Of a stretch of DNA of 11,293 nucleotides, positions 1 through 11,293 are shown piece by piece (the stretch's first letter is position 1; each line of letters starts with the position of its first letter). The translations under genes were made by a program, and so were the position numbers. Location of the stretch: the IMG/VR virus record IMGVR_UViG_2703718818_000011; one strand, written 5' to 3'. A model generated the notes under the pieces. That model saw nothing but the letters and a program-made list of their open reading frames with translations, was not told the origin of the DNA and searched no databases. Origin of the DNA: a virus (lineage: Duplodnaviria; Heunggongvirae; Uroviricota; Caudoviricetes).

Positions 1-653
1 GTGTTGGTGCGCACCGGCACTATTTGCGGTCCCGCTAATACTATGGGTATGCGCCCCGGTGTTATTCGTGGATTTGGTTCCGTAATCAAACGACGATGTG
101 GTTTTCGTCCCCAAATCCGTACTGGATGCGCTGGCGCTGTGGGTGTGCGATTTAATGCCGTCCTGTTCCTGAGACAATACGGCCCGACCACTGGCAGGTT
201 TGCCCTTAATCGTCCAGCCACGCATATCAGGGATCACGCCTGACGGATAAGCGGCTGCAAGTTTCGGGTAAGCAGATTTGTCAAAAGTCTGCCCCTGCAT
301 CAGGGCATAACCAGACGGAACGGTATCTGATGGCCACGGGATTGGTGCGCCGACTGGGTAGCTTTCTGGTGGAAGATTTTTCGAGGTATAAACTTCTGCC
401 CAGCCTTCCTCAAAACCATAACCGTCTCTTGAAGAACGGTAGAACAGACCACCATTTCTGTAATGCGCCTTCATCTGCAGGGTCCGGCAACTTCCGACTC
501 CGGTATAGAAGTTAACCAGAATATAGCTGTCGCCAGAGCGGGTGACATTGTAAGCGCCTGATTCGGCATTCCAGGGAACGCCACCATCCGCATCGGCATA
601 TGTATCCGTTGCCCTTCTGGCAAAAGCAGCCACATGCGCGGCGGTTAAAGTAA

Positions 654-849
654 TATCTTTGGAACCATCAAATGGAACACCGGATATTTTTCTTGCAGTC
701 TGGAGTTTTGTAGCAGTTGCAGCATTACCAGTGGTGTTCTGATTACCCGTAGTGTTTACACCTGGAAGGTTAATATTTGCAGAACCGTCGAAAACAACTC
801 CACCGATAGATCTTGCCGTCTGCAATTTCGTGGCTGTACTTGCATTACC
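654..849 (-). repeat. Imperfect tandem duplication inside stf, two ~75-bp copies about 118 bp apart, encoding a repeated ~25-aa fibre motif (..[21 protein letters not shown])
   Basis: Copy at ~654-729 (…ttttgtagcagttgcagcattacc) and copy at ~772-849 (…tttcgtggctgtacttgcattacc) are visibly similar on the plus strand; both translate on the minus strand to near-identical peptide motifs. Confidence 0.55.
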
Positions 850-1539
850 ATTCAATGAACCAGTTAATCCACCTGTAACAGACAACGGACCTGAAACTGT
901 TCCTCCGGTTGTTGGCAGTGCTCCAATATCTGATGGTGTAGGTTTCTGATGTGAGCTATACATCGTATAAACAACACCATAGGTAACGCTGGAAGGCTTA
1001 CTCGCTGAATATGTTGGCGAGGTATAAACAGAAACTGACGCATTTGCAGTACAATCCCAATGGATATTTACACTCGTCGCATAATTGCCAATCTCAACGT
1101 AAATATCATATGTATCGCCGGATGTGTTGATCCAGGCGAAATTCGTTAATCCGACGGCTGTACGCTTCCACAAAGCCCCGGTAATTCCTTTGGGGTTTCC
1201 ATTGCCTGCTCGTAGAACCAGTTCTGAAATGCCTGCCTGATGTGGGGAACCGACGTTGTAACCAGCGCCACCAATCAATGCGATGTAAACGATGGAACTC
1301 GCTTGTGGCATGGTAACCGTAGCCAGTTTGAACCACCCAGCCCCGCCAGAGAAAGACATCGTTACTGAATTTAAAGTACCAATATCTTTCGGCGTTAATG
1401 TTATATCCGCAGTCAGTGCTTTTCCGTTAACTTTTCGGTTAGATGGCACCCTGCTATTCGCATTGTCATTGGCTGCTTTAACTGCTTTTGGCGTTGCGGC
1501 CAGCGATTCACTGGTGCTATCAACAGCACTGCTAAGTTT

Positions 1540-2480
1540 CACAACACCTTTAGTTGTAAGGCTTGCGTCTTCCATCGCAACTGCACCGGCAATCTCTTCA
1601 GCACGATCAGCAGCAGCTTCCGCACGGGTCGCAGCGGATTCAGCAGTAGTTTTGCTCTGAGATGCCGCCGTCGCACTGCCAGCTGCCTCTGTCGCCTTCG
1701 TGGATGCTGTCGTGGCGCTGCCTTTCGCTGCTGATGCCTGTCTGCTCGCCTCATCTTTTGAAGCAGACGCAGATGATGCCGATGACGCCGCCGAACTGGC
1801 GGACGATGCAGCTGCCATTTTTGAGGATTCTGCACTGGTTTCCGAGGCTTTCGCGTTCGTTTCGGATGTCTTCGCTGCGGATGCAGACCTCGCTGCTGCG
1901 CTGGCCTGTTCAGCGGCTTCGCCAGCCTTCGTTGTGGCTGTTGAAGCAGACGATGCGGCGCTTTCTGCCGATTTTCCGGCGGCGGTGGCACTGGCTGAGG
2001 CCTGCCCGGCACTTGTTGACGCGGCACTGGCAGACGACGCAGCCGCTGTTTTTGAGCCTGCCGCAGCCGAGGCGCTCTGTCCCGCTGCCGTTTCAGAAGA
2101 CCTGGCGTTTGTCTCAGACGTCTTTGCCGCCTTCGCGGAATTGCCTGCCGCCGTTGCCGAGGAAGCGGCACTACTGGCGCTTGATGATGCGTTCGTTTCT
2201 GATGATTTCGCTGCCTCTTTTGAGGCCGCCGCATCCCGGGCTGAGGTGGCTGCTTCTGACGCCTTCGTGGTCGCGGCGGATGCAGAAGTGGCTGCTGATT
2301 GTTGTGACGCTGCCGCATTCGTTTCTGACGTTTTCGCCGCACCGGCACTGGTAGCTGCCGCGCTTTTTGAGGACTCTGCAGCAGCAGCACTTTTTGCTGC
2401 TTCACGGGCCTTTGTCGATGCCGTTCCTGCGCTGGAAGACGCTGACTGAGCCGACGACGCGGCCTGTCCGGCTGACGTGC
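1540..2480 (-). repeat. Low-complexity Ala/Ser/Thr-rich repeat region of the tail fibre shaft, with a 9-aa motif AAK(T/S)SETNA recurring four times
   Basis: The 26-nt units gcgttcgtttcggatgtcttcgctgc (~1853), gcgtttgtctcagacgtctttgccgc (~2105), gcgttcgtttctgatgatttcgctgc (~2189) and gcattcgtttctgacgttttcgccgc (~2315) are all reverse complements of AAK(T/S)SETNA codons. This strong compositional bias produces long spurious ORFs in several frames. Confidence 0.6.
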
Positions 2481-3372
2481 TGGCGGCACGTGCTGAGCCT
2501 GCAGCATCGGTTATTACCACTTCCCGGATCGCTATACGCTATTCCGTTAAAGATAATGGGCGGAATAATGATTTGACGGTCAAAGTTATGATCATCGCTG
2601 ATGGTGACTGTAACCGTCCCGTTTGGTGTTTCCGTATTACCCCACGTACCAGCCTGTTTCGGGAATGATTTGGATACAGCTTTAACGAAGTCACCTCTGA
2701 CCTGAGTCGCCTCCAGCATGCCCTTAATCGTACAGTTTTCATTTACCGTGACATTGTTGAGCGTCCCGGCGTTCGCATTCACACTGCCACTGATATCCGC
2801 ATTTTTAGCGGTCAGCTTTCCGTCCGGTGTCAGGGAAAATGCCGGTGGATTTCCACCGCTGGTAATGGTGGGGGCCGTCAGGCGTTTCAGGAACACGTCG
2901 TTCATGAATATCTGATCGCCCTGACCAACAAACATCGGTTTTGTGTTGCCATTCGCAGGATTAACCATCGCAATCCTGTCCGCCGCCAGCAGCACCTGAC
3001 TCTGCATGCCGTCAGGGGTGTTCTCAATATCCACGATGGCCTCTTTTTCCGGTACATGCTGCACGGCGGTGATGGCATACGTGCCGTCGTCGTTCTCACG
3101 GATACTCACGCAGCGGAACAGGCGCTGGCGCAACGTCGGCAGCTTCAGCCCCCATACGCTGTATTCAGCAACGCCGTCAGGAACACGGCTCACTTTCACC
3201 TTCACGCCGTCGGTGACGGACTGAACCTCCACGCTGACCGGACTCCCCTGCCCGTCAACCAGGCTTATCAGCGTGGTGCCGGAAGATGGCAGCGTGATTT
3301 CACGGTCGAGCGTCAGCGTCCGGGTCTGGCTGTTTACCGCCAGCACGCGCCCGCCGGTGCGGATACCCAAGC
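2402..3372 (-). pseudogene. J: Internal/C-proximal fragment of host-specificity (central tail fibre) protein J, with no native start and reading out of frame into stf
   Basis: The ORF translation [113 protein letters not shown] ... [63 protein letters not shown] is near-identical to two blocks of the second half of lambda J as remembered. The 'start' at 3370 is a TTG inside the J frame; the ORF ends ...[15 protein letters not shown]...KGP in the wrong frame of the stf Ala-rich region. Confidence 0.8.
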
Positions 3373-3588
3373 TGGAGTGGCGAACGTTTTACCCTTGCTG
3401 ATGAGGTATTCACTGATTTCGCTGTACCACATGTGGCTGAGTGCATTCTGGGAAAGACTGCGTCTCTCGCGCCACGGTTTAAGCACCATGCGAAAGCATT
3501 TGCCGTCCTCCAGATAAGGCTGGATCTGCCGACCGATAGCGGTGAAGTTACCGCGATGCAATTTGATACCATCTTGTGGGAGGTTCAC
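3363..3588 (-). pseudogene. ninB: N-terminal fragment (~75 codons) of a NinB/YbcN-family protein, truncated at a deletion junction with J'
   Basis: Translation [75 protein letters not shown] carries the RSL-x-QN motif remembered from lambda NinB (..ERNRSLDQNRKLWACLGDVS..). The start is GTG at 3588. After ..TPAWV the frame reads a few junk codons (SAPAGACWR) and stops, while J homology begins in another frame at the same position. Confidence 0.5.
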
Positions 3589-3782
3589 GCTTCACCTCCG
3601 CAGAGATCAAACGCTGGATGCAAAATATCGCAGGTGCATTTCTGCATCTGTGAATGGAGAAGAGAGGTTGGATTGTATGTGCGCATAAACGTCCCCGTTT
3701 AGCGCAGAAGTCACCGGAGTTGTTCAGGCCCCAATGGCATGATTATGGCTGGTTGATTATTGGAAATCAAATGTGCTGAAAA

Positions 3783-4292
3783 TTAGTCTGCCAAGTCTTC
3801 CTCAGTCGCAACTGGGTAATTCCAAATATCAAAAAAAGCTATAGCCTCCTGCCATTTGCTCCATAAGTTATCAAGTACTTGTGTAGGTTCCGTACTTTTA
3901 AAAACAGAATCAGCCGCATCACCGTTATGAACTTCCTCGTACAGTTCCATTATTAGCAGATTAACAAAGTACTGTTTCAACATTAATGCCTGATTACCTT
4001 CTTTCTGCTGGCTATCCTGCTTGATGATCTCCATCGCCCGTACTAGGCACCTGATGATATCCGCTGCATCATTAACGCTCCATTCAGATCCGCGCTTATC
4101 TTTAGCTGATGAATTGGCTCTCTCAGCGCAAGCCTTTAAAGACTCATAAAGGTAAACTCTATTTTGTAGCTGCAGCGCTTTTTTTGACGTGTACCAACTT
4201 GCAAGCGCCGACCCCGCTGCGGCTAATGTGCCAAACGCAGAAATACCTGCTGCTATTGCACTTAAGTCGGCACTGTCAAAGTTCCACATCAT
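3783..4292 (-). CDS. Hypothetical protein, 169 aa, with a predicted single N-terminal transmembrane helix followed by a soluble, charged, helical-looking domain; function unknown
   Basis: Complete ORF with ATG start and an AAGGTG Shine-Dalgarno about 7 nt upstream. Residues ~10-33 (LSAIAAGISAFGTLAAAGSALASWY) are hydrophobic. The gene is AT-rich relative to the phage backbone, has its own upstream region after a terminator, and does not match any protein I recognise. Confidence 0.55.
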   Translation of the reverse strand: MMWNFDSADLSAIAAGISAFGTLAAAGSALASWYTSKKALQLQNRVYLYESLKACAERANSSAKDKRGSEWSVNDAADIIRCLVRAMEIIKQDSQQKEGNQALMLKQYFVNLLIMELYEEVHNGDAADSVFKSTEPTQVLDNLWSKWQEAIAFFDIWNYPVATEEDLAD

Positions 4293-4321
4293 CGTTACAC
4301 CTTATATAAATACCCCTCAGT

Positions 4322-4350
4322 AATATCCAATAAGGTATGTGCACAATCAA
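4322..4350 (-). promoter_or_regulatory. Candidate sigma70-type promoter for the 169-aa gene (minus-strand -35 TTGATT, 17-nt spacer, -10 GATATT)
   Basis: Minus-strand sequence reads TTGATTgtgcacataccttattgGATATTactgaggggtatttatatAAGGTGtaacgATG. Hexamer match only; not validated. Confidence 0.25.
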
Positions 4351-4468
4351 TATAATTTTATCCGTATCGGCACATAGCGATTTGAACGCTACTGGTAATG
4401 GTATATTTTAGATTATATCGTCCAGTTTACAGCACCCGTATTTTATGAAATGGACTCGCATATTACCC

Positions 4469-4507
4469 AAAAAATGCCAGCACTTCCGTCATCGTAGAAT
4501 GCTGGCA
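4469..4507 (-). terminator. Rho-independent terminator on the minus strand downstream of the 99-aa ORF (end of the ybcK-side transcript)
   Basis: Inverted repeat tgccagca (4475-4482) / tgctggca (4500-4507) with a 17-nt loop, followed on the minus strand by a run of six T (plus-strand A-run 4469-4474). Confidence 0.5.
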
Positions 4508-4550
4508 GTATTTCTAACTAGTGACTTTATTGGAACAGATTCTGACGGAA

Positions 4551-4850
4551 TTATGGTAACACTCGACTCCACTTATCATCCAGCCACGGCTGGAATTTTA
4601 CATGTGCCGTTTCTCTGGCGAGGATTGCTCGCGCTCTGTTGAGTATCTGGGGATATTCTTGCTCGATAGAAGTAAAGCGGCCGGCTTCGCGGTGCTCCGC
4701 AACCTGAAGTAGTGGAGTAACGTTCTGGCAGGCAGTTAACATCACATCACCTGCTCGCCATAACCAAGCACGTGCACAAAGTTTGTTATCAGTGAATTGT
4801 TTTGTGATTGGGTATTGTTGAACTGCTAGAACGAGAACGCCAGCATCCAT
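4551..4850 (-). CDS. Hypothetical protein, 99 aa, unknown function; possibly co-transcribed with ybcK
   Basis: Complete ATG-initiated ORF 111 bp downstream of ybcK on the same strand, followed by the terminator at 4469-4507. GC content is closer to the host/phage backbone than to ybcK. No recognisable motif and only a weak ribosome-binding site, so it may be a gene fragment. Confidence 0.4.
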   Translation of the reverse strand: MDAGVLVLAVQQYPITKQFTDNKLCARAWLWRAGDVMLTACQNVTPLLQVAEHREAGRFTSIEQEYPQILNRARAILARETAHVKFQPWLDDKWSRVLP

Positions 4851-4961
4851 TGGCAGTCCCTATAGTAAAACCATAGCTCAGGACGCTTCGTTCAGGATAG
4901 ATAATTTTATTGTACTTACCTAACTTTCTTACTATAGCACGGTTGAAAAAGTGATTATTAC

Positions 4962-6488
4962 TCAAAAATAAACCTCACCATCAACCATATATTTGAGAGT
5001 ACTTATCGCCTGCTGGGCGGATATTGTTTTCATTAAAGGATAGTGTTTAAAAACAATGCCATTCATAAAATAGATATCACAGGTTTTATTATCTGTATTG
5101 ATTATGATTTTTTCGAATGTTTTATAGGCAAGTGTACGACATAGCTCTCGCCCATTTTTACTGGTTAAGTCAATAGCATGAAAATCACCAAGTGAACTCA
5201 CCGCTTTACTCTTCAAAGTTTTTAATGATACAGAAGCCCTTCGTAATTCCTTATCTAATACTCTGATTTTTTCTGCTATAGCGGTAACTTCAGGCGCAAC
5301 AGATAATGCAGCAATTAAATTATTAATTTTCATCTGGAGCTCAATAATTTTCAACTCTAAAGTTTCATTAGCATCTTTCTTGTTTTCAACTGGTTGGATT
5401 TTACTACAATTAAAAAGCAACTCATTAATGATATTATAATCAACCAAATCTCTCTTTATTGATGGCCTGTCACATCGATGCAGTCTTCTCATCGGACAAA
5501 CATAATAGCCATGCAAACTTCCAGATACCGCATGAACAATCATGGTATTACCACAAGCCTCGCACTTCATAACTGTTCGAAGTAGATTTATCAACATAGG
5601 ATTTTTGCTACTATTGCTAATACCAAAAGGTGCCAACCGAATTTCCTGCACAGCGTAAAACAAATCATCTGATATGACTCTGGGATAATAGCCAGCGATT
5701 TCACTTATTCCTTTACCTCTTGCACGATATGAAGGTACGCATATACCTATCAGAGCTTTATTCGCTAATAATTTTTCAATTACAGAAGGTCCCCATGCAC
5801 TTTCTTTTCCTGAGAAATTCTTTACAGCATGATCATTTAAATACTTGGCTATTGCATTCAATGAGCGCCTTTCCATCCTGAGTTTAAAAATTAGCTCAAT
5901 AGTTTTCACCCTGTCGGGGTCTGGAACAAAAGCCGTTCTTTTGTCATCCAATGAGAGCCATCTCGGACAAGACGCCGTCATAATCGTGCCTGACTCCAGT
6001 GCATCCTGCCGTTTTTTCTTCCATGATAATTTAACCCGACTTGACTTTATCTCGCTTTCTTCATTTGCCCTTTGTGCTATAAGTATGGCTTTTATTAATG
6101 AATATGGCTCATTCAATGAGTCAATATTATAGACTGTATTATCGCAAAGAGTTATAACATCAATACCGTGATTCAAAATCAATTTCAGACGCTCAATCGC
6201 CTCACCGACTTTTTCTCTTGAAAGTCTGTCCAGACTTTCAACTAACAATGTAGTCCCTGGCAATATATAACCATGTTCTATAGCATCTAAAAATTCCGAA
6301 AAAGCTCCTGATTGTGCATGCTTTCCATTGAATGCGCTTAACCCCAAATCTTCATACGTTACGGTATCAAGGTAATAATCACTATTTACCTTTAGCCATT
6401 CAGTAATAAGCCTTCTCTGGCGGTTTAATGAATCACCAGACATCTGACTTGGTGATGAAAATCGCATATATGCTATGGCTTTTTTCAT
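4962..6488 (-). CDS. ybcK: Large serine recombinase (resolvase/invertase-type catalytic domain, recombinase domain, Cys-rich zinc-ribbon-like segment), YbcK-like
   Basis: 508-aa ORF. The N-terminus AIAYMRFSSPSQ carries the serine-recombinase catalytic serine motif, with ..LVESLDRLSR.. following. A Cys cluster (CEACGNTMIVH...YYVCPMRRLHRCD) lies in the C-terminal half. Length and position next to emrE match K-12 DLP12 YbcK as remembered. The gene is strongly AT-rich, with an AT-rich 255-bp upstream region. Confidence 0.85.
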   Translation of the reverse strand: MKKAIAYMRFSSPSQMSGDSLNRQRRLITEWLKVNSDYYLDTVTYEDLGLSAFNGKHAQSGAFSEFLDAIEHGYILPGTTLLVESLDRLSREKVGEAIERLKLILNHGIDVITLCDNTVYNIDSLNEPYSLIKAILIAQRANEESEIKSSRVKLSWKKKRQDALESGTIMTASCPRWLSLDDKRTAFVPDPDRVKTIELIFKLRMERRSLNAIAKYLNDHAVKNFSGKESAWGPSVIEKLLANKALIGICVPSYRARGKGISEIAGYYPRVISDDLFYAVQEIRLAPFGISNSSKNPMLINLLRTVMKCEACGNTMIVHAVSGSLHGYYVCPMRRLHRCDRPSIKRDLVDYNIINELLFNCSKIQPVENKKDANETLELKIIELQMKINNLIAALSVAPEVTAIAEKIRVLDKELRRASVSLKTLKSKAVSSLGDFHAIDLTSKNGRELCRTLAYKTFEKIIINTDNKTCDIYFMNGIVFKHYPLMKTISAQQAISTLKYMVDGEVYF

Positions 6489-6743
6489 GGTGACACCTGC
6501 TAAAGTATGCTTTTATAAACCTTAGTGGTGAGATATGATTTTTGTTTAATTTTTATTTAAAAAGACAATTAAGGTCACATTATCTTGAATATACAACAAT
6601 AATCGTATTGCAATTTTCTTACACCATAATCTTGAAAGCACAAAAGAATGAATAAAAACTAAAGACATTAACAAAAAGCATAAAACGAGGCCCATATAAA
6701 TATACGAGCCTCCATATTTTAGTCGTTTAAAAACAAATTATTT

Positions 6744-7076
6744 TTAATGTGGTGTGCTTCGTGACAATAAATTAATAACCAACACACCGGCACAAATCAA
6801 CATCATGCCTATAATGGCTGGCAGGTCCAACCGTTGGCCGAAAAATCCCCATGATAGTAAGCTAATCAGGACAATACCGACTCCTGACCAGATAGCATAA
6901 GCAATCCCTGTAGGAATATAAGCCAGCGTCTGAGCTAATAACCAGAATGATGCACAATAACAAATAATTGTACCAACAGATGGCCATAACCGTGTAAAAC
7001 CTTCTGAAAACTTCATTAAGGTTGTACCAATGACCTCTGCAAGTATTGCACCACCAAGATAAATATAAGGATTCAT
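6744..7076 (-). CDS. emrE: Small multidrug resistance (SMR) family efflux transporter EmrE, 110 aa
   Basis: Translation MNPYIYLGGAILAEVIGTTLMKFSEGFTRLWPSVGTIICYCASFWLLAQTLAYIPTGIAYAIWSGVGIVLISLLSWGFFGQRLDLPAIIGMMLICAGVLVINLLSRSTPH matches E. coli EmrE essentially residue for residue as remembered. The true start is the ATG at 7076 with an AGGAAAG ribosome-binding site; the 128-aa track ORF starts at an upstream in-frame ATG. Confidence 0.95.
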   Translation of the reverse strand: MNPYIYLGGAILAEVIGTTLMKFSEGFTRLWPSVGTIICYCASFWLLAQTLAYIPTGIAYAIWSGVGIVLISLLSWGFFGQRLDLPAIIGMMLICAGVLVINLLSRSTPH

Positions 7077-7091
7077 AGCATATTCTTTCCT

Positions 7092-7126
7092 GTTCAAACT
7101 GGAGAGAATTGTACTACAGTTTGAAC
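7092..7126. promoter_or_regulatory. Perfect 10-bp inverted repeat (gttcaaactg / cagtttgaac, 15-nt spacer) between ren and emrE, directly upstream of the emrE ribosome-binding site
   Basis: Positions 7092-7101 and 7117-7126 are exact reverse complements. No T-run follows on the minus strand, so it is more likely an operator, RNA structure or module-boundary hairpin than a canonical terminator. Confidence 0.5.
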
Positions 7127-7143
7127 TCAACTCACCTGTTTCA

Positions 7144-7446
7144 TCATTGTGTACCCATTGATGTTCTTTTATATACCCTCAATACCCGTTTCATCGCGGC
7201 ACTCTGGCGACACTCCTTAAAAATCAAATTCGTGCTCACCTTTCCTTCCCATTCTTCTCTGGTAGCGAACCGATAATACACCGTTCGCCAGACCTTACCA
7301 TCAACGACTAGGATTCCTGCCCGCGCCATTTTAGCCGCAGCCTGATTTATGCTGGTTACCGTTGCGCCTGTTACCGCGGCAACGTCCTGCGCACAGAATT
7401 TCTTATGAGTCCCCAGGTAATGAATAATTGACTCTTTGCCCGTCAT
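7144..7446 (-). CDS. ren: Ren-like protein (lambda ren homologue), 100 aa
   Basis: Translation MTGKESIIHYLGTHKKFCAQDVAAVTGATVTSINQAAAKMARAGILVVDGKVWRTVYYRFATREEWEGKVSTNLIFKECRQSAAMKRVL... is very similar to lambda Ren as remembered. Its ATG overlaps the stop of P (ATGA), as in lambda. Confidence 0.85.
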   Translation of the reverse strand: MTGKESIIHYLGTHKKFCAQDVAAVTGATVTSINQAAAKMARAGILVVDGKVWRTVYYRFATREEWEGKVSTNLIFKECRQSAAMKRVLRVYKRTSMGTQ

Positions 7447-8144
7447 ACCCTTGCTCCTTTCAGCCCAAACTTAGCTTTGATTTCTGCGATCTTCGCCAGA
7501 GCCTGTGCACGATTTAGAGGTCTACCGCCCATGACAGGAAGTTGTTTTACTGGTTCAGGTATAGCCTCACCACGGTTAATTCGTGCGGTCATACAGGACA
7601 GTTCATCGGCAGCCTTGCGCCGTAATTCCGCGTCAGTCAACGCATTGGCCCGCATGTTCTGATACAGGTTGGTAACCAGCCAGTAGTGCGCGTTTGATTT
7701 CCACGGATAAGACTCTGCATCCGGATACAGCCCGCGCTTCCGGCAATACTCGTAAACCATATCAACCAGCTCGCTGGCGTTTGGCAGCCCGGCGGTAACG
7801 GATGCTTCTTCCCGGCACCAGGCGACAAACTGCCCGGGTGATGGCAGGAATGGTCGATTCTGCCGACGGGCTACGCGCATTCCAGCGTTAACCTGTTCCA
7901 TTGTGGTGATCCCGTTTTCCCGAAAAGCCAGCACCCACTGGCGGCGGATTTCGTTCAGTTCATTCTGGTCACGGTTAGCCAGGCTCGCCGGGAAAGTTGC
8001 CAGTAACTGGCTGAACACACCGTTGATGATCTGCGCTACCTGCTGTACCTGTGGCTTTTCGTCGTACTGTTCCGGCATGTTGTTGGCGATCCGACGCATC
8101 TGCTCACGGTCAAAGTTAACCATCTGTGCGGCGATGTTTTTCAT
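7443..8144 (-). CDS. P: Lambda-type replication protein P (DnaB helicase loader), full length, 233 aa
   Basis: Translation MKNIAAQMVNFDREQMRRIANNMPEQYDEKPQVQQVAQIINGVFSQLLATFPASLANRDQNELNEIRRQWVLAFRENGITTMEQVNAGMRVARRQNRPFLPSPGQFVAWCREEASVTAGLP... is near-identical to lambda P as remembered, with the same length. Confidence 0.9.
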   Translation of the reverse strand: MKNIAAQMVNFDREQMRRIANNMPEQYDEKPQVQQVAQIINGVFSQLLATFPASLANRDQNELNEIRRQWVLAFRENGITTMEQVNAGMRVARRQNRPFLPSPGQFVAWCREEASVTAGLPNASELVDMVYEYCRKRGLYPDAESYPWKSNAHYWLVTNLYQNMRANALTDAELRRKAADELSCMTARINRGEAIPEPVKQLPVMGGRPLNRAQALAKIAEIKAKFGLKGARV

Positions 8145-8395
8145 AGATCCACCCCGTAAATCCAGTCAGTGTTTGTCAGGTCGAGTTTTGGTTTGCCGAC
8201 TGTCACGCCAGCCTGTTGCTTGTTCCGGTTGATTTCGAGCTGGGTCCACTTGTCGCGGAGTTTGGCCGGACTCAGCACGTTACCGGACCAGAAGTTGTCC
8301 TGGCAGGCCCAGCGGAACAGTACACACATGTCGCGGTGGTTACGTCCATCACGTTCACGCATCAGACGGATATCGTTAGGCGCGATCACTTTCGT
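8141..8395 (-). pseudogene. O: C-terminal fragment (~83 codons) of replication initiator O; the N-terminal origin-binding part and the ori iterons are absent
   Basis: Translation ...IAPNDIRLMRERDGRNHRDMCVLFRWACQDNFWSGNVLSPAKLRDKWTQLEINRNKQQAGVTVGKPKLDLTNTDWIYGVDL matches the P-interacting C-terminus of lambda O as remembered, overlapping the P start. The frame is closed by an in-frame TAG just upstream (~8396-8398). Confidence 0.65.
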
Positions 8396-8503
8396 CTACT
8401 CCATTACAAAGCGAGGCTGGGTATTTCCCGGCCTTTCTGTTATCAGAAATCCACTGAAAGCACAGCGGCTGGCTGAGAAGATAAATAACAAACAGGAGGA
8501 TAT

Positions 8504-9568
8504 ATGAGTCAGGTTGGTAATCATTCATTCGAATTTCCGGCATCGCAAGGTGTACAGGGTGGTACTGTTACACTCTTCCTTACCATACCAGGAAGATCGC
8601 TGGCTCGTTTCCTCGCTTCAGATAATTACGGCCATACACTGGAACGCTCTCAGCGAGAAATTAATCCAAATCGAGTACGAAAATTTTTAAATTATCTCAC
8701 TAACGCAGACTCAAGAAATGAGCCTTTTATCATTCCCCCTCTCGTAGGTAACTGTGATTCGAATATAGAATTTGTACCGTTTGGCAACACAAATGTTGGT
8801 ATAGCCAGAATTCCCCTCGACGCCGAAATAAAACTTTTTGATGGTCAACATCGTGCAGCTGGCATTGAGATATTTTGCCGAAGTTCCCCATCAACGCTCA
8901 TGGTTCCCATGATGCTTACAATGAATCTGCCGCTAAAAACCCGGCAGCAGTTCTTTTCGGACATAAATAACAACGTTTCTAAGCCATCAGCGACCATCAA
9001 TATGGCGTATAACGGCCGGGATGATATTGCTCAGGGAATGATATCCTTCCTGACCCAACATACTGTATTTGCCGATATAACCGATTTTGAACACAACGTA
9101 GTGCCATTAAAAAGTAATATGTGGGTGAGTTTCAAGGCACTCACTGATGCAACGTCAAAGTTCGCTAGGAACGGCAATCAACAACTTGAAATGGGATATA
9201 TAGAATCTGTCTGGGAGGCATGGATTACACTAACTCAGATTGACTCAATCCGACATGGTGTACACCACGCTACGTACAAGCGCGATTATATTCAGTTCCA
9301 TGGAGTAATGATTAACGCTTTCGGTTTTGCGGTTCAACAGATGATGGTTAATCATTCCATCGCAGAAATAACTTCTATGATCGAAAAACTATGTGCAACT
9401 ACCAGCTCTGCAGAAAGAGAGGATTTTTTTCTGATGGATAACTGGGCGGGGATCTGCACGAAAGCCAGCCAGGAAAAACTATCTGTTATTGCCAATGTGG
9501 CAGCGCAGAAAGCAGCAGCAAACAGACTGATACAAGCTTTTACCAAAGGAAGTCTGGAAACAACTTAA
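8504..9568 (+). CDS. DGQHR-motif protein (DndB-like family), 354 aa; orphan, with no dnd/dpd partner genes in the window
   Basis: Complete ORF with a strong Shine-Dalgarno (AGGAGG at 8494-8499) and ATG at 8504. The protein contains the diagnostic motif ..EIKLFDGQHRAAGIE.. at about residues 108-121, and its size is in the DndB range. It is AT-rich relative to the flanking P/O' and xis/int, and is followed by a hairpin plus T-run. Confidence 0.75.
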   Translation: MSQVGNHSFEFPASQGVQGGTVTLFLTIPGRSLARFLASDNYGHTLERSQREINPNRVRKFLNYLTNADSRNEPFIIPPLVGNCDSNIEFVPFGNTNVGIARIPLDAEIKLFDGQHRAAGIEIFCRSSPSTLMVPMMLTMNLPLKTRQQFFSDINNNVSKPSATINMAYNGRDDIAQGMISFLTQHTVFADITDFEHNVVPLKSNMWVSFKALTDATSKFARNGNQQLEMGYIESVWEAWITLTQIDSIRHGVHHATYKRDYIQFHGVMINAFGFAVQQMMVNHSIAEITSMIEKLCATTSSAEREDFFLMDNWAGICTKASQEKLSVIANVAAQKAAANRLIQAFTKGSLETT

Positions 9569-9645
9569 TGAATCAACATTGTCTCATATCAGCATGCTGT
9601 ACGGCGTCTTTAAGGAACGGTGAGCATGAAAAACAAAATCATCAT

Positions 9646-9669
9646 GGAGCTACAGGCTCCTTTTTTATT
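9646..9669 (+). terminator. Candidate rho-independent terminator downstream of the DGQHR gene
   Basis: ggagc (9646-9650) / gctcc (9656-9660) stem with a 5-nt loop, followed by TTTTTTATT (9661-9669). The stem is only 5 bp, so this is a weak terminator. Confidence 0.4.
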
Positions 9670-9782
9670 ATTAATCGGACTTGTGCAAGTTGCCAGGAGG
9701 AGATCGAACTTAAGAACAAACAATGGGGACTGTGATGGCTTCAAAGCAGCAAATTTCAACATCGTCCAACTGAGGTGTAAAA

Positions 9783-10022
9783 ATGTTCAGAATCATTTTT
9801 CCTAACACCTGGTACGTCGACCACCACGGCACTCCCTGCAAAATCCTGCGTTCTACCCACAACAAAGTTCACTACATCCGAAAAGGCAGAACATGTATCG
9901 CCAGCATGTTCCGCTTTAATCATGACTTTGAACCTGTGAATAAAGCTGATGCAGATCGAATAGCAGAAGAGATCGAAACGGCAGAACACATTAAGAAGTT
10001 ACGTGCCATACGCAGGAAATAG
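9783..10022 (+). CDS. Hypothetical small protein, 79 aa, between the DGQHR gene and xis
   Basis: ATG-initiated ORF with a GAGG about 7 nt upstream, on the same strand as xis/int. Small proteins are common directly upstream of xis in lambdoid prophages, but I recognise no motif. Confidence 0.35.
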   Translation: MFRIIFPNTWYVDHHGTPCKILRSTHNKVHYIRKGRTCIASMFRFNHDFEPVNKADADRIAEEIETAEHIKKLRAIRRK

Positions 10023-10161
10023 AAAAATTGATAAATTCAATACTGCATTACTCAGCATTAAATTTATCTCTATGACCAGTCAAGAGATGTACCTGCCATG
10101 AGCTTAATATCATGTCAGATATATCGGTCACAAACTCCCTCAGCAGCTAAGAGGAGGACAA

Positions 10162-10398
10162 ATGTCTCGACTAATCACTTTACAGGACTGGGCTAAAGAA
10201 GAATTTGGGGACTTAGCACCAAGTGAGCGAGTTCTGAAAAAATACGCGCAAGGGAAAATGATGGCCCCACCCGCTATAAAAGTTGGTCGCTACTGGATGA
10301 TTGACCGAAATTCCCGTTTTGTAGGAACGCTTGCAGAACCGCAACTCCCAATAAACGCAAACCCAAAACTCCAACGGATAATCGCTGATGGCTGCTAG
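10162..10398 (+). CDS. xis: Excisionase (lambda Xis-like), 78 aa
   Basis: The N-terminus MSRLITLQDWAKEE... and ...APPAIKVGRYWM.. parallel lambda Xis (MYLTLQEWNA... / ..FPPPVKDGREYL..) as remembered. It has a strong ribosome-binding site (AAGAGGAGG) and overlaps the int start by 11 nt, as in lambda. Confidence 0.7.
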   Translation: MSRLITLQDWAKEEFGDLAPSERVLKKYAQGKMMAPPAIKVGRYWMIDRNSRFVGTLAEPQLPINANPKLQRIIADGC

Positions 10399-11293
10399 AC
10401 CCCGATCTCACAAAATCTCTATACCCAATTTATATTGCAAATTAGATAAGCGAACCGGAAAGGTATATTGGCAATACAAACATCCACTATCCGGTCGTTT
10501 TCATAGCTTAGGAACTGATGAGAATGAAGCAAAACAAGTTGCTACTGAAGCAAATACCATTATTGCTGAACAACGTACCAGACAAATATTAAGCGTCAAT
10601 GAGCGTCTGGAAAGAATGAAAGGCAGGCGCTCAGACATTACGGTGACAGAATGGCTTGATAAATATATTTCTATCCAGGAGGACAGGCTGCAACATAATG
10701 AACTAAGACCCAACTCCTATCGGCAAAAAGGCAAACCCATTCGTCTTTTCCGTGAGCATTGTGGAATGCAACACCTCAAGGATATTACCGCACTTGATAT
10801 TGCCGAAATAATTGATGCTGTAAAGGCTGAAGGTCATAACAGGATGGCGCAAGTCGTGAGAATGGTGTTGATCGACGTCTTCAAAGAAGCACAACACGCA
10901 GGACATGTTCCGCCAGGATTTAACCCTGCGCAGGCAACAAAACAACCGCGAAATCGAGTAAACCGCCAAAGATTGTCACTGCTCGAATGGCAGGCAATAT
11001 TTGAAAGCGTAAGCAGACGGCAGCCCTATTTAAAATGCGGCATGCTACTTGCTCTTGTTACTGGACAACGTTTAGGCGATATCTGCAATTTGAAATTCTC
11101 TGATATATGGGACGACATGTTGCACATTACTCAGGAAAAAACCGGTTCAAAACTTGCTATTCCGCTTAACCTGAAATGCGATGCTCTGAATATTACCCTT
11201 CGTGAAGTTATATCTCAGTGCAGGGATGCTGTTGTTAGTAAATATCTGGTCCATTACCGTCACACTACCTCTCAAGCAAACAGAGGAGACTAG
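10388..11293 (+). CDS. int: Lambda-family tyrosine integrase, N-terminal ~300 aa; the frame ends at TAG 11291-11293, before the expected HxxR / H / Y catalytic residues, so it is probably a pseudogene
   Basis: Translation MAARPRSHKISIPNLYCKLDKRTGKVYW... and ...LALVTGQRLGDICNLKFSDI...QEKTGSKLAIPL... aligns by eye to lambda Int (MGRRRSHERRDLPPNLYIRNNGYY..., ..LAVVTGQRVGDLCEMKWSDI..., ..QSKTGVKIAIP..). Lambda Int continues about 55 aa further with FHELRSL...LGHKS...ASQY; here the frame ends ..ANRGD then TAG at the last base of the window. Confidence 0.8.
   Translation: MAARPRSHKISIPNLYCKLDKRTGKVYWQYKHPLSGRFHSLGTDENEAKQVATEANTIIAEQRTRQILSVNERLERMKGRRSDITVTEWLDKYISIQEDRLQHNELRPNSYRQKGKPIRLFREHCGMQHLKDITALDIAEIIDAVKAEGHNRMAQVVRMVLIDVFKEAQHAGHVPPGFNPAQATKQPRNRVNRQRLSLLEWQAIFESVSRRQPYLKCGMLLALVTGQRLGDICNLKFSDIWDDMLHITQEKTGSKLAIPLNLKCDALNITLREVISQCRDAVVSKYLVHYRHTTSQANRGD

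Follow-up and report, generated by a model that had tools for sequence, protein, structure and literature searches.

A cryptic lambdoid prophage with a phage 21 integration module in Escherichia coli and the TA dinucleotides at its deletion scars

Known relatives and the setting of the element

Phage 21 (OL657228) and intact prophages at its site such as NC-SV of Escherichia coli NC101 insert at the 3' end of icd and carry a replacement for the end of that gene, and the attachment (att) site of phage 21 has been located in icd (PMC12803456). In E. coli K-12 the same site is occupied by the defective prophage e14, with a displaced icd' pseudogene by iraM, and DLP12, an eroded lambdoid prophage of K-12, lies at argU. 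Here we analyzed a stretch of 11,293 nucleotides (virus record IMGVR_UViG_2703718818_000011; hereafter the window, with positions written w1 to w11293), which is E. coli chromosomal DNA (16 complete genomes match at least 95% of its length at 98.5–100% identity) and very probably makes up about two thirds of a lambdoid prophage remnant of roughly 16.9 kb integrated in icd. Cryptic lambdoid prophages are a familiar class, and this one, akin in kind to DLP12 and e14 but without a name of its own, carries the integration module of phage 21.

The window stops short of icd; the insertion shows in complete genomes and drafts in which the window sequence is found. The closest complete genome is that of NCTC9100, in which icd borders the element on one side and a displaced 3' fragment of icd, adjoining iraM, on the other; the icd ends form 217-bp direct repeats that are 93% identical and 17,743 bp apart. 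The icd 3' end is duplicated on both sides of the element, as in a phage-21-type insertion, and the arrangement is that of phage 21 (PMC12803456) and of e14 as given in the K-12 annotation. Since two stretches of NCTC9100 are missing from the window (677 bp with exo and 207 bp of a TraR/DksA-type gene), the window's version of the prophage measures about 16.86 kb from the NCTC9100 att repeats; the prophage length of about 11 kb proposed in an earlier reading of the letters (the first-pass annotation) was the size of the window. Outside the window but within the prophage lie tfa, an AAA/McrB-like and McrC gene pair, and both att repeats, including the displaced icd'.

Genes were assigned from open reading frame (ORF) calls, Pfam, PHROG, PADLOC, tblastn against lambda, phage 21 and DLP12 proteins, and blastn maps. 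The blastn and tblastn matches to lambda and phage 21 were monotonic and on one strand, collinear with the lambda prophage map, and the order in the window is stf' - J' - ybcN' (NinB family) - cargo - ybcK - emrE - ren - P - O' - DUF1317' - DGQHR - xis - int, so that every gene named in the first-pass annotation was recovered in the order and orientation given there. Homologues of the hallmark proteins P, O, Ren, J, Stf, Xis and Int are present at 78–100% amino acid identity to lambda or phage 21, with the J fragments as the exception (one at 91%, the other at 54–65%), and the Pfam hallmarks are Phage_lambda_P, Phage_Tail_Tip, Ig_GpJ_C, Phage_fiber_2, Exc, Arm-DNA-bind_1 and Phage_integrase. 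No head, tail shaft, terminase, lysis, Q, N, repressor or origin was found in the window or between the NCTC9100 att repeats. We consider it likely that the remnant is non-inducible and replication-dead, and probably non-excisable, a judgement made jointly with the one on its overall erosion given below.

The features of the window are as follows (coordinates, strand, identity):

1–2511, minus: stf', side tail fibre remnant lacking about 145 N-terminal codons (Pfam Phage_fiber_2 and Collar on the sister-genome coding sequence); frame analysis shows it open from a stop at w2541 to past the window start, and over 2511 bp it matches the intact L73 prophage stf at 97.3% identity
2512–3367, minus: J', tail tip remnant (Pfam Phage_Tail_Tip and Ig_GpJ_C; tblastn) made of codons 912–1084 (w2512–3029) and 488–600 (w3030–3367) joined in frame; it runs out of frame into stf as far as a stop at w2402–2404 and is 99.8–100% identical to the intact gpJ of L73, minus 933 bp
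3364–3585, minus: ybcN', N-terminal half (codons 2–75) of a NinB/Orf family gene of DLP12 type (phrog_72 NinB/Orf), 94.6% amino acid identity to residues 2–75 of K-12 YbcN (tblastn)
3588–3686, minus: ylcH-like small ORF of 33 aa (tblastn against K-12 YlcH, 85% identity)
3783–4292, minus: 169-aa cargo gene of unassigned function (full-length match to phrog_1779; no Pfam or PADLOC match), in the variable slot downstream of ybcK; the N-terminus of the protein appears hydrophobic on visual inspection
4551–4850, minus: 99-aa P22_AR_C (antirepressor C-terminal domain) gene (PF10548; phrog_7640)
4962–6488, minus: ybcK, intact large serine recombinase of 508 aa (Pfam Resolvase, Recombinase and Zn_ribbon_recom), 97.2% amino acid identity to K-12 YbcK over its full length
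6546–6695, minus: ylcJ, 49 aa (Pfam YlcJ; tblastn)
6744–7076, minus: emrE, intact SMR multidrug efflux pump of 110 aa (Pfam Multi_Drug_Res), 99.1% amino acid identity to K-12 EmrE
7144–7446, minus: ren, intact, 100 aa (phrog_142), 87–88% amino acid identity to lambda and phage 21 Ren
7443–8144, minus: replication gene P, intact, 233 aa, without O or origin (Pfam Phage_lambda_P), 97.9% amino acid identity to lambda P
8141–8378, minus: O', last 79 codons only (blastn to lambda 39347–39585; C-terminal end of phrog_277)
8379–8506, plus: DUF1317/orf60a', 3' part with the last 42 codons (blastn to lambda 31323–31194; tblastn)
8504–9568, plus: DGQHR/DndB-like cargo gene, intact, 354 aa (PF14072 DndB; PADLOC DndB; phrog_7901 over its full length)
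9588–9735, plus: orf61-proximal remnant and the last codons of a TraR/DksA zinc-finger gene (alignment to NCTC9100 and W284; tblastn)
9783–10022, plus: DUF4222 gene, 79 aa (PF13973; 90% amino acid identity to the phage 21 homologue)
10162–10398, plus: xis, intact excisionase of 78 aa (Pfam Exc), identical to phage 21 Xis at 78 of 78 residues
10388–11293, plus: int', phage 21 integrase, 301 of 380 aa, identical to phage 21 Int at 301 of 301 residues

Full-length genes are ybcK, ylcJ, emrE, ren, P, the DGQHR gene, the 169-aa gene, DUF4222 and xis, which bears out the earlier description of all of them except ylcJ and DUF4222 as intact. The G+C content is 32–41% in the ybcK-emrE block and 52–62% in the phage core. 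To the left of the window (L001 7650–10723), in the equivalent of the b region, a 651-aa AAA_5/McrB-like gene and McrC (Pfam AAA_5, McrBC) form a type IV restriction-like cargo pair. PADLOC reported DndB only, plus weak AAA matches for the McrB-like protein. At least 80% of a 1.55-kb stretch around the DGQHR gene was present in 283 of 5426 complete genomes, and the DGQHR protein occurred in 3756 blocks of an assembly collection. IntD-type prophages at argU carry an identical DGQHR/DndB-like protein in the corresponding map position, flanked by DUF1317 and TraR, and in PhiR26_1 the features annotated under the match to the DGQHR part include the defence gene PD-lambda-1.

Phage 21 shares with the element an identical Xis, an identical Int over 301 residues, and lambda-type P and ren, and the DUF4222-xis-int DNA is 98.6% identical between them. 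However, phage 21 is a complete phage of 42.9 kb with sitABCD cargo by att, where the element has the McrBC-like genes; the element lacks head, tail, lysis, Q, immunity, N, bet, gam, exo and origin functions, has a truncated int, and carries in addition a DLP12-type nin/cargo region and the DGQHR gene. DLP12 shares ren-emrE-ylcJ-ybcK and ylcH-ybcN at 93–96% DNA identity and has TA-type scars of its own, one of them at the same DUF1317 TA as the element. The two differ in site and integrase, and the DLP12 IntD protein gave no tblastn match in the window, which separates the element from DLP12. DLP12 moreover keeps nin, Q and lysis genes and nohD and has lost P and O, and its slot after ybcK holds ybcL-ybcM where the element has other cargo. 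The prophage e14 has restriction-type cargo at its far end (mcrA, as against the McrBC-like genes), but its integrase (IntE) is different, its tail genes are Mu-like, and K-12 e14 gave no blastn match to the window, so that the element is not e14 either. Nor is the element lambda: as a whole it is of phage 21 type at icd, with a DLP12-type nin/cargo region. There is no categorical difference from cryptic lambdoid prophages in general (Rac, Qin and other 'grounded' or domesticated prophages), which share the loss of lytic and structural genes, surviving morons, some recombination or integration genes, and insertion sequence (IS) insertions. We consider it quite likely that the ancestor combined a phage 21 integration module at the icd 3' end with lambda-type O, P and ren and a DLP12-type nin, lysis and cargo region, and its length would, from the deletions mapped below, have been about 47 kb.

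A phage satellite, either a phage-inducible chromosomal island or P4-like, was rejected as the identity of the element, which has only P and a C-terminal O stub and no origin or replication module; no satellite hallmarks turned up in the Pfam, PHROG and PADLOC scans of the window.

Deletion scars and the decay series

The scars were mapped against the L73 prophage (stf and J; 97–100% identity), W284 and PhiR34_1 (early and nin regions), and NCTC9100 (late events). Alignments to these near-identical intact references placed the scars to the base:

D1, w2511/2512: loss of 1416 bp, comprising the last 82 codons of J, lom and the first 145 codons of stf
D2, w3029/3030: in-frame loss of 933 bp inside J (codons 601–911, 311 codons)
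D3, w3367: J codon 487 joined to ybcN codon 75, with loss of about 22.7 kb (PhiR34_1 coordinates) holding tail, head, terminase, lysis, porin, Q and most nin genes
D4, w8378: the last 79 codons of O' joined to the last 42 codons of DUF1317/orf60a', with loss of 5.1 kb in W284 terms holding the ori iterons, cII, cro, cI, the pL region, kil, gam, bet and exo
D5, w9672–9675: loss of 207 bp of the TraR/DksA-type gene, with a 2-nt AA filler added

The three deletion blocks of the first-pass annotation correspond to D1, D3 and D4; D2, D5 and the int mutation described below had escaped it. The flanks of D2 share patchy similarity (CTCTG..GCCGTCA) and are possibly repeated domain units. The ori iterons (lambda 39034–39118) were deleted together with the O N-terminus, and a 59-aa fusion ORF (w8328–8507) that bridges junction D4 was found in 452 blocks of the assembly collection. 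Of 5426 complete genomes, 17 carry D1–D3 in one stretch; they derive from chickens, a crow and hospitals, or are old strains of culture collections. The D5 junction was absent from the 5426 complete genomes, GTDB representatives, JGI metagenomes and called ORFs.

The int gene ends at a real TAG (w11291–11293) that closes on the final base of the window. Where NCTC9100 and phage 21 have CAG, the window has TAG (Q302*), a change that drops 79 C-terminal residues and with them most of the catalytic Phage_integrase domain (residues 202–367 of the full protein), and loss of most of this domain predicts, from the sequence, that excision would fail. The same nonsense codon is present in drafts L021 and L023 (GCA_000951895.1, GCA_025585535.1), L023 being 100% identical to the window except for the TraR deletion, and int is intact in sister strains. 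Altogether, at least five illegitimate deletions and one int nonsense mutation are, with good probability, what gave the element its present form.

Strain W284 has a largely intact sibling in the same position, whose Int, Xis, DUF4222, TraR, DUF1317 and EmrE proteins match those of the element exactly. Its genes run in the order int-xis-...-DGQHR-DUF1317-exo-bet-gam-kil-cI-cro-cII-O-P-ren-emrE-ylcJ-ybcK-(cargo)-ybcN-ninE-ybcO-rusA-Q-porin-lysis-terminase-head, which fills the gaps of the window in the expected lambda order. The major capsid gene of W284 (L009 233–6093) is itself interrupted by an insert with an integrase, AlpA, a TIR-domain protein, an Icd-like protein and a primase, which looks P4-like or satellite-like.

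The cross-strain comparison suggested in the first-pass annotation yielded a decay series of four steps, the most economical order being D1–D3 plus the O'|exo junction (NCTC9100 type), then loss of exo (RM10410 and L021–L023), then int Q302* (L021, L023 and the window), then the TraR deletion (the window only). Other carriers have decayed further along their own paths. In RM10410, stf carries IS2, and int carries ISVsa5 and an IS3-family element; Z217-2 has a 519-bp stf deletion and an int stop codon; in Z1323HEC0011, stf and part of J' are gone and an IS3-family element has entered upstream of xis. In the FORC064 type (also 98-3133, Z1323PEC0012 and L030), stf through P is lost, emrE-ybcK included, and Z1323PEC0012 carries IS1 inside DGQHR. 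NCTC9087 represents an independent decay of the same prophage (tfa'|gam-bet-exo-...-int) in which the emrE-ybcK block is lost. In ML35 (L011 21443–34675), a deletion has fused P codon 33 to ymfQ of an e14-like remnant, DGQHR through int is lost, and an IS3-family element lies in the McrB-like gene. L033 (12090–21065) carries phage-21-like and e14-like elements in tandem, both using the same attB, and such an array could be the source of an ML35-type fusion. One ancestral icd prophage can thus be traced through at least nine structural states in public genomes, a worked decay series that makes domestication versus neutral erosion testable at the icd locus. It adds one more well-documented case of lambdoid prophage decay in E. 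coli and is of limited general importance.

TA dinucleotides at the scars

We compiled 18 scars, 13 from the icd prophage lineage, three from K-12 DLP12 (against PhiR34_1) and two from K-12 e14. The junction microhomology included TA in 14 of the 18 (TA in eight, one of them CTA; TACC in two; and TAC, TAT, GGTA and CGGATAC in one each), with those of the window at 2511, 3029, 3367 and 8378. The remaining four have GT/GGT (two scars), no microhomology plus filler (one), and AT or CAGGGAT (one); the sole scar with neither TA nor any microhomology is D5. Random deletions with at least 2 bp of microhomology contain TA in 4.3% of cases (p = 1.7e-16), and a conservative count that drops events at re-used sites still gives 10 of 14 (p = 1.7e-11). 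Among 22 distinct parental TA sites, 13 are TACC/GGTA (background 16%, p = 4.5e-6) and four are TACCGG/CCGGTA (background 1.6%, p = 3.6e-4), and every available relative conserves the parental bases at the junctions. The TA bias is statistically strong.

Breakpoints are also re-used, at least five of them against 0.09 coincidences expected by chance. These are the O' site (w8378; two junctions), P codon 33 (w8046–8048; FORC064 type and ML35; site sequence CTGCTGTACCTGTGG), the stf 3' site (L001 11794–11796; FORC064 type and Z1323HEC0011; site sequence CACCAATACCGACAG), the J C-terminal site (w2512; D1 and Z1323HEC0011), and the DUF1317 TA (L001 21056–21057, equal to L018 ~2633), used by the icd element and, in the opposite direction, by K-12 DLP12. 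As a control, the classical lambda nin5 deletion is flanked by 10-bp repeats instead.

One explanation would be a TA-specific, (GG)TA(CC)-preferring recombination or cleavage activity that made the deletions and returned to the same hot spots, in which case the erosion would be partly enzymatic and go beyond generic microhomology slippage. The frequency of TA, the TACC/GGTA preference, the re-use of breakpoints and the contrast with nin5 all point this way, and a two-base palindromic crossover with weakly symmetric flanks is the footprint of a serine recombinase, with ybcK and Pin genes at hand. Candidates would be the serine recombinase YbcK, a Pin invertase, or a host topoisomerase or recombinase. 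However, no enzyme matching the motif was found in the literature consulted; the flanks of the re-used half-sites lack a clear common motif; four scars do not fit; and the events are perhaps not all independent, as some may be nested. The data are confined to lambdoid or related E. coli prophages, in which a general host bias and a phage-borne activity are inseparable. To our knowledge, neither the site preferences of IS630/Tc1, IS5, IS200/IS605, IS30, Xer/dif or Hin/Gin/Pin nor those of RusA (5' of CC) or type II restriction enzymes fit all the sites. The text of a gyrase Topo-Seq paper gave no central consensus, so that gyrase is neither supported nor excluded. The boundaries of the cargo slot by ybcK were checked as well and are not TA-type sites, which weakens the simple idea that YbcK moves cassettes. 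On balance a specific activity is possible, and we hold it tentatively. If such an enzyme exists, the modelling of prophage inactivation would change, and an orphan recombinase such as YbcK would gain a function.

Cargo, position and the forces behind the erosion

Whereas the identity, architecture, scars and decay series of the element can be read off the alignments, the selective forces behind them are what we infer. The survivors would be genes near the two ends that do no harm, and central functions that are lethal or costly (lysis, kil, N, and origin firing without a repressor) would have been purged. The int-proximal end may be protected in that the prophage supplies the last ~164 bp of functional icd. 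In such a process emrE, ybcK, the 169-aa gene, DGQHR and the McrBC-like genes would be ordinary phage morons, which may still be expressed, and their persistence is not demonstrably selected, with sister lineages continuing to lose cargo. Stepwise erosion of this kind, purging harmful central functions and leaving survival to position, is the explanation that we favor with some confidence; a modest benefit of some cargo is possible.

The cargo itself is common phage property. The emrE-ylcJ-ybcK genes, the slot after ybcK and DGQHR are all usual morons of viable phages, and every cargo gene belongs to a PHROG family. In PhiR34_1, 4A7, Turner, 1W, 3W and Perceval, which are viable, emrE-ybcK sits between ren and ybcN. 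The slot from ybcK to ylcH/ybcN is variable, holding ybcL-ybcM in K-12 and PhiR34_1, an esterase in 4A7, P22_AR_C plus a 309-aa gene in W284, and P22_AR_C plus the 169-aa gene in the window (window 3772–4922; L007 3409–5221; L008 3409–4789; L009 18409–19557), and its left boundary (...AATCAAA|) was identical in all examined.

The first-pass annotation had proposed instead that the host kept the remnant for the benefit of emrE, ybcK, DGQHR and the 169-aa gene, selection having shaped the deletions. Intact cargo ORFs beside truncated structural genes agree with this, as do the enrichment of cargo by base pairs, the fact that the NCTC9100 type and NCTC9087, which decayed independently, both keep the McrBC-like pair and DGQHR, and the independent retention of emrE-ybcK in K-12 DLP12. 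By locus, however, four of seven cargo loci are kept while 36% of the DNA is kept (p = 0.22); lom was lost with D1, and Bor/Iss and the porin were, judging from the siblings, probably lost with D3. Sister lineages lose cargo too, emrE-ybcK being gone in the FORC064 type and NCTC9087, and DGQHR being gone in ML35 and interrupted by IS1 in Z1323PEC0012. A second copy of ybcK-emrE lies elsewhere in most carriers (two places per record; one only in ML35), and genes other than cargo survive as well: P, ren and xis are equally intact, tfa and stf' remain, and exo persists in sister strains. Selective retention of host-beneficial genes is therefore partly plausible yet unproven, given cargo that is carried by viable phages and is itself lost here and in the sisters, and we regard it as an unlikely account of the deletions.

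Several observations weigh against stepwise erosion as we describe it. In our own reconstruction, about 80% of the ancestral cargo DNA is kept, against about 23% of the core. The McrBC-like pair (kept in ~9/9 structural variants, with an IS3-family disruption in ML35 only) and DGQHR are still present in nearly all variants, NCTC9087 with its independent decay among them, and some positive selection on them is conceivable. Both lie near the element ends, so that position could account for their survival, and end position together with selection against lethal central functions explains the enrichment by base pairs equally well. The carrier sequences, at 99.9–100% identity, are too similar for dN/dS. 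Finally, the 207-bp TraR deletion, the last step of the series, was seen in the window only, without independent confirmation.

That DLP12, lambda and phage 21 segments were joined by misassembly or separate insertions can be set aside as extremely improbable: the best matches do differ by part (lambda/21 for P and ren, DLP12 for emrE-ybcK, phage 21 for int-xis), but mosaicism is normal in lambdoid phages, W284 has all modules contiguous and largely intact at the same site, the D1–D3 junctions recur in the 17 complete genomes, whose hosts and countries differ, the same junctions are found in draft assemblies by the hundred, and D4 recurs in its 452 blocks, all as the earlier proposal of one collinear eroded lambdoid prophage had it.

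A few minor observations concern the window and its flank. Rfam at the gathering threshold gave no match in the window and ARAGORN no tRNA there, and a promoter and terminator consensus scan of the window returned matches no more numerous than in shuffled sequence and was thus uninformative on expression. In the left flank the sole Rfam match was IS009, over tfa. Antisense to the Ala/Ser-rich repeat region of stf, a 249-aa ORF (w1700–2449, plus strand), which RefSeq genomes list as 'hypothetical protein', is probably spurious in the same way as lambda orf206b.

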